DNA of 64,000 nt. Source: an uncultured Candidatus Bathyarchaeia archaeon. GTDB lineage: Archaea > Thermoproteota > Bathyarchaeia > RBG-16-48-13 > CAYPFQ01. The stretch covers positions 22,560 through 86,559 of the forward strand of contig CAYPFQ010000001.1 of assembly GCA_964410135.1 (NCBI GenBank). Direction: 5' to 3'. The notes below the pieces were generated by a model. It was not told the origin of the DNA. It saw nothing but the letters and a program-made list of their open reading frames with translations, and did no database searches. Position numbers and translations under genes: made by a program. Of the stretch, positions 2,640-45,038 are shown one piece after another. The stretch's first letter is position 1. Every line of letters begins with the position of its first letter.

Positions 2640-2930
2640 TTAACCGAAGAGCGCTCCAAGTCCAGCTACAGCTTCTTCCTCTTTTTTCTCTTCCTTCTTT
2701 TCCTTCTTCTTCTCGGCGGTTGGTGCACCTGCAGGTGCTGAGGCGAGAGCTAATGCGGGACCTGCTTTTATTGCCTCATCAATGTTCACTTCAGATAATG
2801 CGGCTACCAGCGATCTTACTCGGGCTTCATCGATTTTAACGCCAGCGGATGTCAACAGTTTCTTCAGGTTCTCTTCGTTAACTGGCTTTTTTGTAGAGTG
2901 TAGAAGCATAGCAGCGTATACATATTCCAT
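2640..2930 (-). CDS. rpl12: 50S ribosomal stalk protein L12 (P1)
   Basis: 96 aa. The Ala/Glu/Lys-rich C-terminal tail ends in GLGALFG, typical of archaeal P1. It sits downstream of L10/P0. Confidence 0.9.
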
Positions 2931-5740: not shown

Positions 5741-6553
5741 CTAAACTCTTAACACTTCGATGTCCATTTCTTCTAAAATTTCAAGCACCATTCTTCTCGG
5801 CTGACCGCGAGTCCCTTTCCAATCTATGACCGCATGTTTACAGCCGCCCCAAGTTTTCTGGAAACACATTCTAACCATCTCAGCATCCATTTTTTCGAGT
5901 GCGTATTTTGACATTATATGTCCTACAGCAAGATCTTGTTCCAAAGTCACTCGGGTATGAGATGGAGCATAATGTCCGGCGCCAAAACCCACTGCAGATG
6001 GGCTTTTTGATGGGCTGGTTATCGCTGTCCAGATAGCTTCTGCAACTGCTTCGCCAGCTTTTGGGTCTATCCACTGCGCTTCAGAGCTCCCGATCTCCAT
6101 GAATGTAATTGGAACGCTCATTTCGGTTGGACCATGATGGGTGACTTCAAGCGAGATTGAGTAGTCTAGGTTGAGTTTTTTCCCGAGGTGGGCTAGGGTT
6201 AAGAGTGCAGCTTTCATGCGTTGAGGATTTGCCCATGCAATTTCTCTAGGGTGCCCGCCATAAAGGGCTTGGTCGGTTAGATTGCCGGGAACGTGCACTG
6301 TCAGGGTTGGCTGGCCGGTTTCACTTTTATGGCGTGAGGCAAAAATTATCTCATCAATTTTAAATTGTTGGTCTAATTTGTTTGCATGGATGCACTCTGA
6401 GTTAGGAAATGTCAGCAGAACATCTTGGCATTTATAGACGAGCTTTCCATCGAAGACTTCTTCGGTTTCAACAAAATTGTGACGCTTGATCAGTTTGTCC
6501 GCGATGTTGAGGGCTGCTTTATCTAAATACGAGGCAACAACTAGAATTGTCAT
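5741..6553 (-). CDS. dtdA: D-aminoacyl-tRNA deacylase, archaeal type (DtdA)
   Basis: 270 aa. Motifs IFASRHKSETGQPTLTVHVPGN, EVTHHGPTE and GHYAPSHT match the archaeal D-Tyr-tRNA(Tyr) deacylase family. Confidence 0.75.
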   Translation of the reverse strand: MTILVVASYLDKAALNIADKLIKRHNFVETEEVFDGKLVYKCQDVLLTFPNSECIHANKLDQQFKIDEIIFASRHKSETGQPTLTVHVPGNLTDQALYGGHPREIAWANPQRMKAALLTLAHLGKKLNLDYSISLEVTHHGPTEMSVPITFMEIGSSEAQWIDPKAGEAVAEAIWTAITSPSKSPSAVGFGAGHYAPSHTRVTLEQDLAVGHIMSKYALEKMDAEMVRMCFQKTWGGCKHAVIDWKGTRGQPRRMVLEILEEMDIEVLRV

Positions 6554-34060: not shown

Positions 34061-34151
34061 GGGCCCATAGCTCAGTCAGGTAGAGCGGTGGACTCTTAGC
34101 CTTGAGTGGGAGATCCAAAGGTCGGGGGTCCAATTCCCCCTGGGCCCGCCA
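34061..34151 (+). tRNA. tRNA-Lys(CUU) with 14-nt intron at the canonical 37/38 position (intron ~34099-34112); CCA encoded
   Basis: GGGCCCATAGCTCAGTCAGGTAGAGCG, then GTGGA-CTCTTA[GCCTTGAGTGGGAG]A-TCCAA, then AGGTC-GGGGG-TCCAATT-CCCCC-TGGGCCC-G-CCA. Without the intron the loop is CUCUUAA, anticodon CUU. The T-loop TCCAATT has an unusual C at position 55. Confidence 0.8.
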
Positions 34152-39808: not shown

Positions 39809-41614
39809 CTACTCAGATTCTTTTTCGCTTATAGTTGTGTAGTAGTATTCTCCGATGTCTTTCTGGTGCTTATCGAGGCGTGACCCTTCCTTGTTTACGC
39901 GGGGGCGTCTTGTGGTGGAGTCTCGCCGAAACGTGACCGCCATATCTTTCAGGAAGGCATTCATTCCATCTCTGAGGCTCACTGGCTGGTTTGCCTGTCC
40001 TTTGACGCCTGGCTCGCCTGTGAACACCATTATGCGGTCGGCGATGAAGTCCTCGGCTACCACATCATGTTCAACTACGAATGCGGTTGCACCCTTACTT
40101 TCTACTATTCTCCGTATTGTCCTAGCCATCGCTAATCGTTCTTCAACATCCAGGTAGGCGCTTGGCTCGTCGAGAAGATATATCTGGGATCCTCTTGATA
40201 GACAGGTAGTGATTGCGACTCGTTGCAGCTCTCCTCCGCTAAGCTCCTTCACCTGTCTGTCTAGAAGTCTCTGGATGTTTAATGGCTGGGCAAGTTCGGA
40301 TTTGAACCAGCTCGATCCATATTCGTCTTTAGCTACTGTTCGGAGGAGCGATTCGACTGTGCCGTCATATTCGGGCGCGATGTATTGAGGCTTATAGCTG
40401 ACCTTTTGGGCATTCCTCAGTGGAGCGCCTTTATCTGGTTTTTCGATTCCAGCTAGAAGCTTGACGAACGTGGTTTTCCCAATTCCGTTAGGTCCAAGTA
40501 TCCCGATTACTTCTCCTTGGTGGATCTCTCCATGCTTGGTGGTTAGGGTGAAACCGTCGTAGGTTTTCTCCATCGCCTTCCATTTTAGCACGACCCTGTG
40601 GGCAGCCCACGCGGTTACTGGTGGGTGAAGTGGGAACTTTATTGGCGTCTCTCTGAATCGCACATTCTCGTCGGCAATATAGCCTTCTAGATAGATGTTT
40701 ATCCCAACCCGTACTCCATGTGGATGGGAAACGATTCCATAGATACCGGGCTCACCATACAATACGCATACTTGATCTGAAAGATAGTCTAGAACTGCTA
40801 GGTCGTGCTCAGCTACAAACACGGTCTTACCATCATCCTTGAGGCTACGAATTGCTTTAGCTACTTGGAGGCGCTGTTTCACGTCTAGATAGCTTGACGG
40901 CTCATCGAAAAAGTATACATCCGCTTCTCGGCACATAGCCGCTGCAATCGCTACTCTCTGCAACTCTCCTCCGCTTAATTGGTCGAGGCTTCGAGTCCAA
41001 ACCGGGGTTAATTGAAGTTGCTCCGCGATCGTACTTAATTTTCCACGGTCATCCGCCTTTTCGAGAAGTTTCTTTACATTTCCTGAGACTGCCTTGGGCA
41101 ACGCATCGACATACTGAGGTTTGTGGACAACTTTCAATTTGCCTTGGCTTAATCGATTAAAATATTCTTGAATAACTGAACCCCTATAATGTTGGATTAT
41201 CTCTTGCCAGCTTGGAGGGTTCTCATATTTTCCTAGGTTTAGCCTGACTTCGCCAGTCAAGATTTTTATGACCGTTGTCTTTCCGATGCCGTTTCTACCG
41301 ATAAGCCCTGTAACTGCTCCTTTTTGCGGTACTGGGAGCCTGAAAAGCTCAAATGTGTTAGGTCCAAATCTGTGGCTTGTTTCTCCAGCTAATTTGTCTG
41401 GAAGGTTGACGATGTATATGGCAGAGAAGGGGCATTTTTTAATGCAGATTCCGCATCCGACACACAGGTTTTCAACTATTGTTGGCTTCTTTTCGCCTTC
41501 TTTGAATTCTATGGCGAAGACCCTGCTCCTCACTTTAGGGCAAAACTTGTAGCAAACTATGCCACAGTCTTCAGGTCTACATCGGTCTTTGTCAAGAACT
41601 GCTACGCGAATCAT
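39809..41614 (-). CDS. abcE1: ribosome-recycling ATPase ABCE1 (RNase L inhibitor homologue)
   Basis: 601 aa. The N-terminal FeS domain (CRPEDCGIVCYKFCP, CVGCGICIKKCP) is followed by two ABC cassettes (GIGKTT, LSGGELQR twice). Confidence 0.9.
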   Translation of the reverse strand: MIRVAVLDKDRCRPEDCGIVCYKFCPKVRSRVFAIEFKEGEKKPTIVENLCVGCGICIKKCPFSAIYIVNLPDKLAGETSHRFGPNTFELFRLPVPQKGAVTGLIGRNGIGKTTVIKILTGEVRLNLGKYENPPSWQEIIQHYRGSVIQEYFNRLSQGKLKVVHKPQYVDALPKAVSGNVKKLLEKADDRGKLSTIAEQLQLTPVWTRSLDQLSGGELQRVAIAAAMCREADVYFFDEPSSYLDVKQRLQVAKAIRSLKDDGKTVFVAEHDLAVLDYLSDQVCVLYGEPGIYGIVSHPHGVRVGINIYLEGYIADENVRFRETPIKFPLHPPVTAWAAHRVVLKWKAMEKTYDGFTLTTKHGEIHQGEVIGILGPNGIGKTTFVKLLAGIEKPDKGAPLRNAQKVSYKPQYIAPEYDGTVESLLRTVAKDEYGSSWFKSELAQPLNIQRLLDRQVKELSGGELQRVAITTCLSRGSQIYLLDEPSAYLDVEERLAMARTIRRIVESKGATAFVVEHDVVAEDFIADRIMVFTGEPGVKGQANQPVSLRDGMNAFLKDMAVTFRRDSTTRRPRVNKEGSRLDKHQKDIGEYYYTTISEKESE

Positions 41615-41683
41615 TGCAGACTCCCTGTCAATTTAAACGTAATAGTTTGGTACTAAAATAAATCGTAAGTTCATTTCGACATT

Positions 41684-41699
41684 GAAAATCTTTATATCC
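41684..41699 (+). promoter_or_regulatory. BRE/TATA-like element (GAAAATC-TTTATATCC) upstream of the acidic micro-ORF
   Basis: An A-rich BRE-like stretch and a TTTATATC box sit about 40 nt before ATG 41740. SD GAGGAGG is at about 41726-41732. Confidence 0.35.
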
Positions 41700-41739
41700 T
41701 TGTAGGGTTGTTCATGTTGCGAAACGAGGAGGACACTTC

Positions 41740-41805
41740 ATGAGCGAAGAATGGGAGGAAGAAGGTACAGAAGAAGGAGAAGAAGCCGAAGAAGAGGAAT
41801 GGTAA
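41740..41805 (+). CDS. candidate micro-protein, 21 aa, poly-acidic: MSEEWEEEGTEEGEEAEEEEW
   Basis: ATG is preceded by a perfect GAGGAGG Shine-Dalgarno 8 nt upstream and a TTTATATCC TATA-like box about 40 nt upstream. The TAA stop is followed by T-rich tracts. It lies in a 250-nt gap between abcE1 and the next gene. Confidence 0.4.
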   Translation: MSEEWEEEGTEEGEEAEEEEW

Positions 41806-41864
41806 AGATAGCCCCCTTACTAAATTTTTCTTGTTTAAATCTTAGCGTTTTTTAATTTATTTTT

Positions 41865-42617
41865 TTAAGATGCTGCAGTTATAGGTAAGATTTCAACGGA
41901 TCCTGTGCATCCGTTAATTTTGAGTACTCGCGCCTCATTTTTAGGTTCTCGGATGTATTCGGCGTAGTAGAATGGGAAATAGAGTGTCGTAATTTCGTTT
42001 ACATTGACCGTTTCATTTTTTATTTTTTCTATGTCCTTGGGTCTTTGCGTTATGTGTTTTTTAAGGAGATCTACAGCTTTTTCAGTTAGGATTTCAACAT
42101 TTAGGATTTCATGTTGGTGTTCATGGTAGAAGCTTTCGTGTATCTCCTCCATTTTCACTTTTGGTAGCTCCTTTGCTATTTCCCTGCCTTTGCGGTCCAA
42201 TATCATTGTGGCTGAATTCCTAAATTGAACCAGTTCTGTCGCCTCAATTTTAAGCCCCTTTGTTGCGCTTCCCTCTTTCTCTGGCTGGGGGGTTAGCTTT
42301 TTATTGAAAACCTCAACTTCCGCGACCTCGGAATTGACTGGAACTGCATACGTGCTTTTTCGGTAATAGTCCAGGCTGTAGCTTCCGCTGATTCGTAGGT
42401 ATGGTTCATAATATTTCACGAACCGGGTGCATTTCAACTCATCTGGTTTGGGTTTGTTGAAGAATCTGAGCCGGGCGAAGGCGGAGATTTTTCTTTTTTC
42501 AGCGATTTCCCATGCTTTCACGCGGGTGATGTCGACTGAGCTCATTAGGATTTTTGGTTTTGCTAACTCTTTTGATGGCTCTTTAGACACTCGGCTCAAA
42601 TTCGGAAACACAACCAT
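41865..42617 (-). CDS. hypothetical protein (250 aa)
   Basis: Clean ORF with no recognisable motif. Confidence 0.3.
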   Translation of the reverse strand: MVVFPNLSRVSKEPSKELAKPKILMSSVDITRVKAWEIAEKRKISAFARLRFFNKPKPDELKCTRFVKYYEPYLRISGSYSLDYYRKSTYAVPVNSEVAEVEVFNKKLTPQPEKEGSATKGLKIEATELVQFRNSATMILDRKGREIAKELPKVKMEEIHESFYHEHQHEILNVEILTEKAVDLLKKHITQRPKDIEKIKNETVNVNEITTLYFPFYYAEYIREPKNEARVLKINGCTGSVEILPITAAS

Positions 42618-42670: not shown

Positions 42671-43312
42671 TTGGTGAAACCTATGCGGATCGTCAGGGCA
42701 ACAGATGCTACTATCAACGAAGCAGTACAAATTGTCAAAGAAGGCGGGCTGGTCGTCTACCCAACTGATACCGTTTACGGGCTTGGATGCGACCCATTCA
42801 ACGTTAATGCAGTTAAACGAGTTATGAAAGTGAAGGGGCGGTCAAAAAAACCGCTTCCTGTTCTCGTAGCATCACTAGAGGAGGCGGGAGAGATTGCTCA
42901 TATTACTGATGAGGCCTACAGGCTTGCAAATAAATTATGGCCAGGAGCTCTGACCATGATTCTTAGAAAGAAACCAGCTTTGTCGAATGTCGTGACATGC
43001 GGTTTAAACAGTGTTGGCATACGTAGTCCTAATCATGCCACTGCGTTGAAGTTAATTCAACTTTCAGGGGGCTTCCTGATTGGCACAAGTGCTAATCTTA
43101 CTGGCAAAAAGTCTCCTCGAACTGCTGAGGAGGCAGCAAAACAGGTTGGAAAGCATGTCGATCTGATTCTTGACGCGGGCGCCAGCCCCATCGGCATAGA
43201 CTCAACTATCATAGATCTGGCCTCTAGAAGCCCGAGGATCGTTAGACCTGGTCCAGTGGGAGCGAGGGAGATAGCTGAGGCTTTATGCATAGAGGAGAGC
43301 AGAATTTGTTAA
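42671..43312 (+). CDS. tsaC: L-threonylcarbamoyladenylate synthase (TsaC/YrdC-type, t6A biosynthesis)
   Basis: 213 aa YrdC domain with YPTDTVYGLGCDP and ANLTGKKSP motifs. There is no Sua5 C-terminal extension. Confidence 0.8.
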   Translation: MVKPMRIVRATDATINEAVQIVKEGGLVVYPTDTVYGLGCDPFNVNAVKRVMKVKGRSKKPLPVLVASLEEAGEIAHITDEAYRLANKLWPGALTMILRKKPALSNVVTCGLNSVGIRSPNHATALKLIQLSGGFLIGTSANLTGKKSPRTAEEAAKQVGKHVDLILDAGASPIGIDSTIIDLASRSPRIVRPGPVGAREIAEALCIEESRIC

Positions 43313-43833
43313 ACGATTTCAATCTTTTACTCTCATCCCCTAGGGGGCGTGAACGTGAAACTTGCTCTGAAATTTGGGCGCTTTTTAATGAGCTTGGAGA
43401 CGTGGCCTTCAAAGTTGACCGAACCAATGTCATTGGCTTAGTAGTAGCGAAGACAAGGCTGAATCCTTTTGAAGCGGTGGAAAAGCTTCGAGCCATCTTA
43501 GCTGAGAGACCTGAAGCGTTTCATTACACATTGAAAGTCACTCCGATCGAGCGTGTAGTGCCAACCGACTTGAATGCGATTAAAAATGCTGTAGGCGAGC
43601 TATCCACAAAGATTGGGAAAGATGAGAAGTTCAGAGTAACCGTTGAAAAGAGACATAGCGAGCTTCCGACGATCGATATTGTGGAAGCTGCAGCGTCAGT
43701 AATAGATAGAAAAGTTGACTTAGAGCATCCGGATAAAATTGTATTGGTTGAAGTACTGGGAAAGCTTACTGGGATATCTGTCATCAAGCCCTCAGACATT
43801 TTGGCTATTGCAAAAGAGAGAATGAGTTTCTGA
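43285..43833 (+). CDS. THUMP-domain RNA-binding protein
   Basis: 182 aa. The N-terminal NLLLSSPRGRERETCSEI is the typical THUMP-protein opening. The C-terminal RVTVEKRHS...DIV pattern is THUMP-like. No catalytic domain. Confidence 0.55.
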   Translation: MHRGEQNLLNDFNLLLSSPRGRERETCSEIWALFNELGDVAFKVDRTNVIGLVVAKTRLNPFEAVEKLRAILAERPEAFHYTLKVTPIERVVPTDLNAIKNAVGELSTKIGKDEKFRVTVEKRHSELPTIDIVEAAASVIDRKVDLEHPDKIVLVEVLGKLTGISVIKPSDILAIAKERMSF

Positions 43834-44400
43834 CTATTTTGATATGCGTAGTAAAGCGCCACGTTCAATTATGAGATAGGTTAAGGCCTCTTTCTCTGCG
43901 TTTTTTGTTTCAGCCTTAGCCTCCACTTCTTTGTCAGTAATTTCAAACAATTTCTTCAGAGTAACGTATTTCTCGTCGGTCACCCGCATTACATCGTCAT
44001 CCGGTTTGCCGCCTAGGATCTCAGAGACTATGTTAAAAGCTGTCTTGACCTCATTTTCGCTGCTCGCTATGATGAGAACTGCTACGTTACGTGTTTTTGG
44101 CATTACTCCTAGCATATCAAACGATCTTTGGATCTGTCTCTGTCCAGAAGCATAGAGAATCGCCTCAGTTGCTAGTCCATGGGTCAACTCCGACTTATCA
44201 TGGAATGCTTTGAGTGCATTTAGCGTGGCGAAGTATATGTGCTGCCAGCCTGCAACCTTGGCTGCATTGAAAATTTGAACATGTGCCTCGGTTTTATTTC
44301 GGATTTTATCGAATACCATGTCCACATTAGTGATTTTTACGTCTTTTAAACCAGCAATTACTACAAATTTGCCGAATTCCTCGGCTTCTTTAAGCAGCAC
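43834..44400 (-). CDS. cgi121: KEOPS complex subunit Cgi121
   Basis: 188 aa. ILYASGQRQIQRSFDMLGV aligns with the conserved LVRASGQRQI motif of archaeal Cgi121. It is next to tsaC. Confidence 0.7.
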   Translation of the reverse strand: MLLKEAEEFGKFVVIAGLKDVKITNVDMVFDKIRNKTEAHVQIFNAAKVAGWQHIYFATLNALKAFHDKSELTHGLATEAILYASGQRQIQRSFDMLGVMPKTRNVAVLIIASSENEVKTAFNIVSEILGGKPDDDVMRVTDEKYVTLKKLFEITDKEVEAKAETKNAEKEALTYLIIERGALLRISK

Positions 44401-44405
44401 TTTCT

Positions 44406-45038
44406 CTATTTGCGCTCCCTAAAAATATCTTTTATAAAATGCCTTACATGCTGCCGCTTTATCCCAATCTTAACTAAGGTATTTTCTATTTCCTTGAGCG
44501 ATTTGCCTTCATTCTTCAATTTTTGTCCTATTTTTGCGCTGGCCTCTTTTCGTTCCCAGGGAAATACCACCCATGCATCGGTTTTCTTAGCATAGTAGTC
44601 TGGGATGACTATGGACCACGGTTTGTAATAGATTGTGCAGATTCTGACATTTGATGCACCTTCTTCTAGAAGATGTTTTCGTATAAGTTCAAGACTTTTC
44701 CCAGAGTCTGCGACATCATCAGCTACAAGCACGTTCTTGCCCTTTACTGAAGCTGAAATTGGCTGAGTTATTCTGGGTTCTTCAGTAGTCTTGTAAATGT
44801 CCACATAGAATTCAGCTTTGATATTTGCAAGATTTGGGTTCTGTAGGAAATCGGATAGTATCCTCGCTGGAGGCCAACCACCTCGAGCTACTCCAACTAT
44901 TATATCTGGTTTAAATCCACTCTGCCCTATTCTCTCAGCAAGCTCGATAAGAAACTCATAGATATCTTCCCATGTCGGGACATCATACTTGATGGTTTTC
45001 GGCAGAGGAGACTCCCTCGTAAGAATGAAAATAACCAA
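44406..45038 (-). CDS. phosphoribosyltransferase (purine PRTase-like)
   Basis: 210 aa with the PRPP-binding motif NVLVADDVADSGKSL. Confidence 0.6.
   Translation of the reverse strand: MVIFILTRESPLPKTIKYDVPTWEDIYEFLIELAERIGQSGFKPDIIVGVARGGWPPARILSDFLQNPNLANIKAEFYVDIYKTTEEPRITQPISASVKGKNVLVADDVADSGKSLELIRKHLLEEGASNVRICTIYYKPWSIVIPDYYAKKTDAWVVFPWERKEASAKIGQKLKNEGKSLKEIENTLVKIGIKRQHVRHFIKDIFRERK

Follow-up and report, generated by a model that had tools for sequence, protein, structure and literature searches.

Few proteins of archaea and eukaryotes are as conserved and essential as the ribosome-recycling ATPase ABCE1. To our knowledge, no dedicated small cofactor of archaeal ABCE1 has been described, and none turned up in the literature searched. 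Among small acidic proteins, DSS1 is disordered and carries aromatic anchors, and LysW has the C-terminal acidic tail EDWGE. Here we describe a 21-codon micro-open reading frame (micro-ORF) for a Glu-rich peptide with a terminal Trp, located next to abcE1 in a 64,000-nucleotide stretch of DNA from an uncultured Candidatus Bathyarchaeia archaeon (contig CAYPFQ010000001.1 of assembly GCA_964410135.1, positions 22,560 to 86,559; hereafter, the window).

The closest described systems include ligands of ABCE1 itself. The C-terminal 18-mer of the stalk protein aP1 binds a cavity on the NBD1 domain of ABCE1 and activates its ATPase (PMC6125642). The N-terminus of eIF3j takes up a similar position on ABCE1, in a "multivalent interaction patch" near NBD1, and eIF3j stimulates ABCE1-dependent splitting (PMC7780240). 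In the acidic motif of eIF3j, a Trp is inserted in a hydrophobic pocket with charge complementarity (PMC2824034). In eukaryotes, Rli1/ABCE1 uniquely requires an adaptor, Lto1, which attaches through its C-terminal Trp to the targeting complex of cytosolic iron-sulfur protein assembly (CIA) (PMC4523923). In the CIA signal, [LIM]-[DES]-[WF]-COO-, only the last two positions are conserved, and binding is dominated by the carboxylate and the aromatic side chain (PMC10245660; 10.64898/2026.04.06.716496). A different kind of precedent comes from leader peptides and acidic N-termini. EttA acting on the MgtL leader alters mgtA expression (PMC11282234), and ribosomes of bacteria and eukaryotes alike pause or become unstable on N-terminal acidic runs, an effect relieved by the twin-ATPase ABC-F proteins (PMC9718836, PMC12673854, PMC11282234).

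The micro-ORF and its signals

An earlier note on this DNA had described a TATA-like box, a GAGGAGG Shine-Dalgarno (SD) sequence, 21 sense codons, a TAA stop and T-rich tracts at this position, and each of these elements is directly present in the sequence:

41684..41699, plus strand: putative archaeal promoter of the micro-gene, consisting of a purine-rich GAAAAT resembling a transcription factor B recognition element (BRE) and then the TATA box CTTTATATCC (41690-41699), which lies about 42-50 nt 5' of the ATG
41726..41732, plus strand: SD sequence GAGGAGG, with a spacer of 7 nt to the ATG
41740..41805, plus strand: micro-protein gene, ATG at 41740, 21 codons encoding MSEEWEEEGTEEGEEAEEEEW and TAA at 41803-41805, recognised from the sequence and from orthologues
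41825..41866, plus strand: strand-specific oligo-T tracts (T5 at 41825-29, T6 at 41848-53 and T7 at 41860-66), likely an archaeal intrinsic terminator of the micro-gene

Some details of the earlier description need correction. The peptide contains 13 Glu among its 21 residues (11 GAA and 2 GAG codons) rather than 15, the SD sequence stands 7 nt and not 8 nt from the ATG, and Trp occupies positions 5 and 21, so that there is no Trp at the N-terminal end. The correctly spaced SD sequence and start codon fix the reading frame. Downstream, the micro-ORF converges with an ORF of 250 residues (41865-42617, minus strand) that has no Pfam or NCBIfam family. Because the T-runs lie on the strand of the micro-ORF, they would terminate its transcript and not that of the convergent gene. 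A scan of the window for sigma-70 promoters and hairpin terminators was uninformative, the host being an archaeon.

Across all six frames of the window, the micro-ORF is the sole stop-delimited segment with an acidic C-terminus, and 200 simulations of the window under an order-2 Markov model produced no such ORF. Rfam, run on the whole window, gave no match at the micro-ORF (the only hit was a tRNA at 34061-34148), and folding of the micro-ORF transcript region gave no signal (z-score -0.28). The reading of this locus as a real small gene for a Glu-rich peptide with a terminal Trp is strongly supported by its sequence features, and the earlier judgement that it carries more signal than a random ORF stands, given the simulations and its conservation in relatives, described below.

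GAA repeats are simple sequence, and the locus could in principle be an ORF by chance alone, or a purine-rich element of non-coding RNA. Against this, the length of the micro-ORF changes between relatives by whole codons only, exchanges are between GAA and GAG, Glu and Asp or Glu and Gly, and the terminal TGG-stop is invariant over two archaeal classes; the well-spaced SD sequence and start codon, the Rfam and folding results and the simulations point the same way. We see hardly any likelihood in this reading, even when it is pooled with the carrier-peptide reading considered further on. An Arg-rich ORF of 34 codons (MGGRRYRRRRRSRRRG...) at 41751-41855 on the plus strand overlaps the micro-ORF in a different frame. 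It was dismissed as a by-product of the GAA repeat, as it has no SD sequence and its frame is not conserved.

Conservation beside ABCE1

Conservation was assessed in a set of loci fetched by ABCE1 only, which is hence unbiased with respect to the micro-peptide. The ABCE1 of the window assigns this DNA to the Bathyarchaeia, being 61-69% identical to that of named Bathyarchaeia genomes and 71-91% identical to that of closer relatives; four metagenome contigs carry an identical ABCE1 together with an identical micro-ORF. A Glu/Trp ORF of 21-29 codons, ending in EEEEW-stop, lies beside ABCE1 in all 11 Bathyarchaeia loci with readable upstream DNA (L001, L002, L003, L005, L006, L008 and L205-L209; ABCE1 identity 61-91%). 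Examples of the orthologous peptides are MEEEEWEEEDIGEEEEWEEEEW, MPEEEEEWEEDWEEEEWEEEEW, M(TTG)FEEEEEWEEEWEEEWEEEEW and MAEDWEEEWSDEEWGEEEGEEEGWEEEEW. In all relatives found via ABCE1 alone, GGAGG(TGA) is located 5-12 nt 5' of an ATG, GTG or TTG start. Where the micro-ORF and ABCE1 are in tandem orientation, a BRE/TATA-like box (AAA..YTTAAA/TTTATA) precedes the start by ~50-60 nt, and in the Bathyarchaeia loci of this set T-runs follow the stop by 16-30 nt. Alignment of the five loci with divergent orientation shows islands of conservation at the TATA box, the SD sequence and the ORF between diverged flanks; TTTATAT is invariant and the block GAAGAAGAGGAATGGTAA is nearly so.

The family extends beyond the Bathyarchaeia. 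Versions of 41-44 codons are found at loci whose ABCE1 is 95-98% identical to Verstraetearchaeota/Methanomethylicia proteins. Three of the four Methanomethylicia loci retrieved via ABCE1 alone carry the micro-ORF, with the ends ...DETDEDEEW, ...EDFEEEEW and ...EEWEEEEEEW, and a micro-ORF is also present in a lineage more distant still (L182). An acidic-tailed ORF was found in none of 72 ABCE1 loci of Thermoplasmatota, Halobacteriota, Hadarchaeota and Poseidoniales, in which 4 kb was searched. The earlier note had proposed looking for a conserved syntenic micro-ORF, with SD sequence and ATG, by abcE1 homologues; this is what every informative Bathyarchaeia relative shows, and the Methanomethylicia as well.

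In the sequence comparison, the promoter, SD sequence, start, frame, C-terminal EEEEW-stop and oligo-T are thus kept across class-level divergence. The last three residues are E-E-W in 14 of the 14 ORF-bearing loci of the ABCE1-anchored set, the window counted. The internal Trp lacks such conservation, position 5 being W, F or V even inside the window's own clade.

In the Methanomethylicia, a TFS-like protein of ~100 residues is encoded between the micro-ORF and ABCE1 (L210 2132-2437, L211 2174-2476, L212 2151-2441 and L213 2115-2444; also in L091 and L162). The protein is limited to the N-terminal zinc ribbon of TFS/RPB9 (PF02150) plus an acidic tail that ends in ..DFE or ..EFE.

The association also emerged from a scan of metagenomes in which ABCE1 was ignored and only the pattern GGAGG, 45-75 nt, EEEEW-stop was sought. 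The scan returned 120 loci, 95 of them with a family-like ORF. In 54 of the 95, the micro-ORF immediately precedes ABCE1 in the same orientation, with a median gap of 127 nt (47 gaps fall within 100-155 nt). A further five are on the same strand 0.9-1.6 kb upstream of ABCE1, and one is divergent from it (L120). Another 23 have at least 450 nt of downstream DNA without ABCE1, and the remaining 12 are cut by a contig end, leaving 83 judged loci, of which at least 60 (72%) are linked to ABCE1. The gene on the far side of the micro-ORF varies, being asparaginase, a 250-residue ORF or Sua5, which indicates that the adjacency to ABCE1 holds regardless of the second neighbour.

The 74 distinct peptides of the scan are mostly 17-27 residues long; Glu makes up 61% of their residues, Trp 11.5% (in most cases three per peptide) and Asp 6%. 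Across 93 family members the SD spacer is mostly 7-9 nt, and 60 of the 93 have a run of at least five T in the 60 nt that follow the stop (median offset 24 nt), as against 15 of the 93 with a run of at least five A. The C-terminal invariance of this metagenome set was imposed by the search pattern, so only the 14 ABCE1-anchored loci bear on it.

Several members of the scan depart from the common form. A sub-family with the beginning M-R/P-x-Y/R-S followed by EEEE..W is found in L112, L149 (stop at oriented position 2006) and L153 (stop at 2282); none of these adjoin ABCE1, and two loci of the sub-family are near genes for Lrp/AsnC-like regulators. It may represent a second paralogue per genome. 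The copy in L143 (6295-6399, plus strand), 135 nt upstream of ABCE1, has its first part in an Arg frame (..GGRRRGVGRGRRWEEEEW) and is a frameshifted pseudogene or an assembly error.

The family was previously unannotated. Bathyarchaeia members have 17-29 codons, about 60% Glu and 1-5 Trp. Pfam and NCBIfam gave no match for six family peptides (for Pfam, at E<=1 for five of them), PDB sequence searches with two family peptides returned nothing, and an exact look-up of eight family peptides in a collection of 15 billion proteins found none present, an absence explained by gene callers skipping the micro-ORF. A homology search with a 42-residue variant recovered only two near-identical ORFs, and the 27-codon version in L208 was called, nameless, by one Joint Genome Institute annotation. 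Nothing relevant was found in the literature on "EEEEW" or on small ORFs of Bathyarchaeia or ABCE1. We file the micro-gene as a new gene family, whose products probably work like the known acidic-aromatic tail ligands.

Cis-acting leader or trans-acting product

Whether the micro-ORF acts on ABCE1 expression in cis or encodes a product that acts in trans depends on its arrangement relative to ABCE1. In the window, abcE1 is on the opposite strand:

39809..41614, minus strand: abcE1, encoding the ribosome-recycling ATPase ABCE1/RLI, with Fer4 and two ABC_tran domains and 61-69% identity to Bathyarchaeia RLI
41654..41662, minus strand: candidate TATA box of abcE1, TTTATTTTA, 40-48 nt 5' of the abcE1 ATG and back-to-back with the micro-gene promoter

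The micro-ORF is therefore divergent from abcE1, and 125 nt separate the two start codons. The earlier note correctly located it in the gap upstream of abcE1, but it is on the strand opposite abcE1 and is transcribed away from it. The same inverted but intact cassette occurs in L205-L208 (77-91% ABCE1 identity) and in L120, with all signals and the EEEEW end kept, while the surrounding DNA of the inverted loci has substantially diverged. In tandem loci, a conserved GTTTAT(A/T)A box stands between the T-runs and ABCE1, ~35-45 nt from the ABCE1 start codon, and it is by analogy with this box that 41654..41662 is put forward as the abcE1 TATA box. T-runs after the micro-ORF stop, together with a box before ABCE1, indicate two separate transcription units. 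Some copies of the micro-gene are parted from ABCE1 by inserted genes, and others are unlinked. Inversion, separation or unlinking, and a promoter of ABCE1's own argue for a free-standing gene with a trans-acting product rather than a leader peptide. The inverted cassette of the window still abuts ABCE1, with the two promoters back-to-back ~30 nt apart, which suggests that co-regulation with ABCE1 is what the adjacency preserves.

Among the inserted genes is one for a PIN-domain (VapC-like) protein, which together with a small partner gene upstream of it separates the micro-ORF from ABCE1 in L132, L157 and L161. In L133 and L132, two small genes with no known family are also found in this interval.

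The tandem layout, being the common one, nevertheless suggests a rival, a cis-acting sensor or leader ORF. Translating the poly-Glu run, or terminating at EEEEW-stop, would pause or destabilise the ribosome, and with the oligo-T tract 16-27 nt past the stop, a paused ribosome would modulate termination and read-through into ABCE1, providing feedback in the manner of TnaC or MgtL/EttA. As in those systems and in acidic N-termini, the ORF is very short, has its acidic run within the first ~30 codons (aborted translation here would be by analogy) and usually stands just 5' of a gene for a ribosome-bound twin ATPase. Among the 60 ABCE1-linked copies, 54 are directly upstream on the same strand with narrow spacing, and the T-run has its median 24 nt past the stop. 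The same-strand, upstream position expected of a leader is found in most other relatives but fails in the window, L205-L208 and L120, where the ORF faces away from ABCE1 and yet promoter, SD sequence, frame, EEEEW-stop and T-runs are kept. The micro-gene differs from TnaC and MgtL in carrying a likely terminator of its own and in staying conserved where it is inverted or unlinked from ABCE1, and the downstream gene has its own promoter, marked in tandem loci by the conserved TATA-like box; as far as sequence can tell, ABCE1 would not depend on read-through. In the Methanomethylicia an entire TFS-like gene intervenes. No conserved attenuator RNA structure was found (fold z-score -0.28). We therefore consider the regulatory leader, one of the functions put forward in the earlier note, a decidedly improbable account: in the window, in four relatives found via ABCE1 and in one scan locus, the micro-ORF and abcE1 occupy opposite strands, the micro-ORF has a likely terminator of its own, and abcE1 has its own promoter.

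A candidate ligand of ABCE1

The best explanation overall, which we favour tentatively, is a free-standing, ABCE1-coupled micro-protein gene whose product would be a trans-acting acidic tail that docks on ABCE1 or a partner through its terminal Trp-COO-. The peptide has no hydrophobic core, is overwhelmingly negative and varies in its internal aromatics; what is invariant is Glu-Glu-Trp with a free carboxylate. This anatomy is that of a short linear ligand, and a terminal E-E-W that never varies is better explained by a specific pocket than by bulk charge. The product would act as a disordered, free acidic tail, its Glu run being steered by electrostatics onto a basic surface while the side chain and carboxylate of the last Trp fill a hydrophobic pocket next to it. 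The target could be ABCE1 itself or a ribosome-bound partner, and ABCE1 is the prime candidate because of the genomic association and its known acceptance of such ligands. Candidate sites on ABCE1 are the NBD1 patch that accepts the stalk aP1 tail and the eIF3j N-terminus, or the Lys/Arg-rich FeS domain. Binding would tune the recruitment, ATPase activity or release of ABCE1 in ribosome recycling. The position beside ABCE1 in two archaeal classes points to a small partner of the translation machinery, and of the functions suggested in the earlier note, an acidic mimic or decoy would be the most plausible class of mechanism; nothing points to a chaperone or proteasome-associated peptide.

Several points weigh against this explanation. 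Both translation and transcription of the micro-gene we infer from its signals alone. Acidic runs at the N-terminus are known to be difficult to translate (PMC9718836, PMC12673854), so it is uncertain how much full-length peptide would be made, and this keeps a translation-sensor role alive as a rival. ABCE1 is not near the micro-gene in 23 of the 83 judged loci, and the link is thus strong but not obligatory. The peptide does not contain the L-x-x-L-F motif used by the stalk tail on ABCE1, and the aP1 of the window keeps its canonical tail. A search of ABCE1 for a basic patch peculiar to the Bathyarchaeia turned up about a dozen lineage-specific Lys/Arg residues, which are scattered; the comparison used only non-Thermoproteota sequences, so its signal is inseparable from phylogeny. 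Finally, part of the adjacency could be inherited gene order, as an ancestral block is common to the window clade and the Methanomethylicia.

This last point bears on another alternative, in which the product is an acidic peptide of general function with no action on ABCE1. It might mimic nucleic acids, chaperone very basic proteins such as ribosomal proteins or histones, or buffer cations or polyamines, and it would be co-located with ABCE1 only through an old neighbourhood of translation genes. The window clade and the Methanomethylicia (L210-L212) share the order phosphoribosyltransferase-CGI121-THUMP-Sua5-[micro-ORF]-ABCE1, and the copies away from ABCE1, including the M-R-x-Y-S-EEEE...W sub-family, would also be consistent with a general role. 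In most Bathyarchaeia, however, the block has otherwise been lost, and asparaginase and other genes stand upstream, yet the micro-ORF-ABCE1 pair persists; the adjacency has survived inversion, and the invariant terminal E-E-W favours a specific pocket. A general peptide is possible but, in our view, unlikely.

In the window, the pair is flanked at 42671-45038 by this translation/tRNA-modification block (Sua5, THUMP, the KEOPS subunit CGI-121 and a phosphoribosyltransferase). ORFs of 222-263 residues with no Pfam family are placed similarly to the convergent 250-residue ORF only in the closest relatives (L081-L084 and L205-L207) and in L209, the likeness being one of position. Elsewhere in the window, a tRNA gene of ~90 nt at 34061-34151 (plus strand) scores 56 bits with Rfam; ARAGORN gives no anticodon for it, and it probably contains an intron.

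The terminal Trp invites comparison with iron-sulfur (Fe-S) protein maturation. As in the CIA signal, a terminal Trp with a free carboxylate follows an acidic residue, and the function of Lto1 is likewise dedicated to ABCE1 (PMC4523923, PMC10245660). The C-terminal Trp is present in all 14 ABCE1-anchored loci bearing the ORF, and the penultimate residue is Glu in all members. On this reading, the peptide would bridge ABCE1 and a cluster-delivery protein: its Glu run would bind the basic apo-FeS domain, and its E-W-COO- end would serve as a CIA-like targeting signal. The requirement of eukaryotic Rli1/ABCE1 for Lto1, and a family that always ends E-W-COO- and adjoins ABCE1, speak in its favour. 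The CIA signal, however, prefers an aliphatic residue (Leu, Ile or Met) at position -3, where all family members have Glu; it is borne by folded clients or adaptors, whereas the micro-peptide is free; and its receptor, Cia1-Cia2-Met18, is eukaryotic, with no known archaeal receptor for the micro-peptide. The signal has been reported absent from archaeal homologues (PMC10245660), and the parallel is one of analogy only. A role in Fe-S maturation is thus very improbable. The same holds for the more specific proposal, again an analogy and a long shot, of a minimal ABCE1-dedicated adaptor whose Glu run would grip the apo-FeS domain or an NBD1 patch while E-W-COO- plugs a delivery or regulatory protein, as an archaeal counterpart or forerunner of the Lto1 signal.

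A carrier or primer peptide whose acidic tail is modified, as in LysW or RimK substrates, would fit a small protein with an acidic, Trp-containing C-terminal tail, as found in LysW and other amino-group carriers. These carriers, however, have a zinc ribbon, a terminal Glu that is loaded and neighbouring LysX/ArgX ATP-grasp genes; the micro-peptide has no Cys and always ends in Trp, and no ATP-grasp gene was among the micro-ORF neighbours inspected. A LysW carrier was rejected on these grounds, and the carrier idea in general shares the near-negligible likelihood given above to a non-coding or chance origin. The scan did return a LysW-like zinc-ribbon protein (MARCPECNTILPIPPDVALYDRLYCEECGALLEVV...) with an acidic tail of ~40 residues ending EEEW, at 5944-6200 (minus strand) of L135; this high-GC, bacterial-looking contig is an unrelated locus, and the gene is not beside ABCE1.

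The remaining comparisons are with ligands of larger complexes. The aP1 stalk tail is likewise an acidic, flexible tail that ends in an aromatic-containing motif, but it binds through L103, L106 and F107 (L-x-x-L-F-G), which are not in the EEEEW-ending micro-peptide, and the micro-protein is a separate gene (PMC6125642). A mimic of the stalk tail was ruled out by the peptide's lack of L-x-x-L-F and by the canonical tail of aP1 in the window. That aP1 gene (2640-2930, minus strand), with its AGLGALFG end, adjoins the gene for the stalk base protein aP0/L10 (2930-3832, minus strand), whose C-terminus is without the GLGALFG factor-binding tail. In many archaea, aP0 and aP1 have this tail in common.

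With the N-terminal acidic motif of eIF3j/Hcr1, the micro-peptide shares, by composition and pattern, a disordered acidic stretch centred on Trp, and eIF3j is likewise tied to ABCE1. In contrast, eIF3j is a dimer of ~260 residues with a helical bundle, a basic C-terminus and an internal Trp, whereas the micro-peptide has 17-44 residues, no fold and its invariant Trp in last place; Pfam, NCBIfam and PDB searches gave no match that would indicate homology between the two. DSS1/Sem1 and CSNAP are also tiny, highly acidic and disordered, with a few aromatics that anchor to basic or hydrophobic grooves of larger complexes (PMC8442969). They differ in being eukaryotic proteins of 57-90 residues with PCI-domain complexes or BRCA2 as partners, and Pfam placed none of five micro-peptides in DSS1_SEM1 or any other family at E<=1. 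The micro-gene family thus belongs to none of the leader/attenuator, LysW, stalk-tail, DSS1/Sem1 or eIF3j groups, and it matches the CIA signal in part, at positions -1 and -2 but not -3. Unlike the known acidic-aromatic tail ligands, it is encoded as a free micro-protein and is coupled to ABCE1.

A product of ~20 residues kept beside ABCE1 over two archaeal classes would add a participant to ribosome recycling or to the maturation of ABCE1. The family bears on how ribosomes handle an ORF that is almost wholly an N-terminal acidic run, and on the origin of the acidic-aromatic C-terminal signals of eukaryotic translation and Fe-S biology. It also indicates that deeply conserved micro-genes of ~20 codons are still absent from archaeal annotation.

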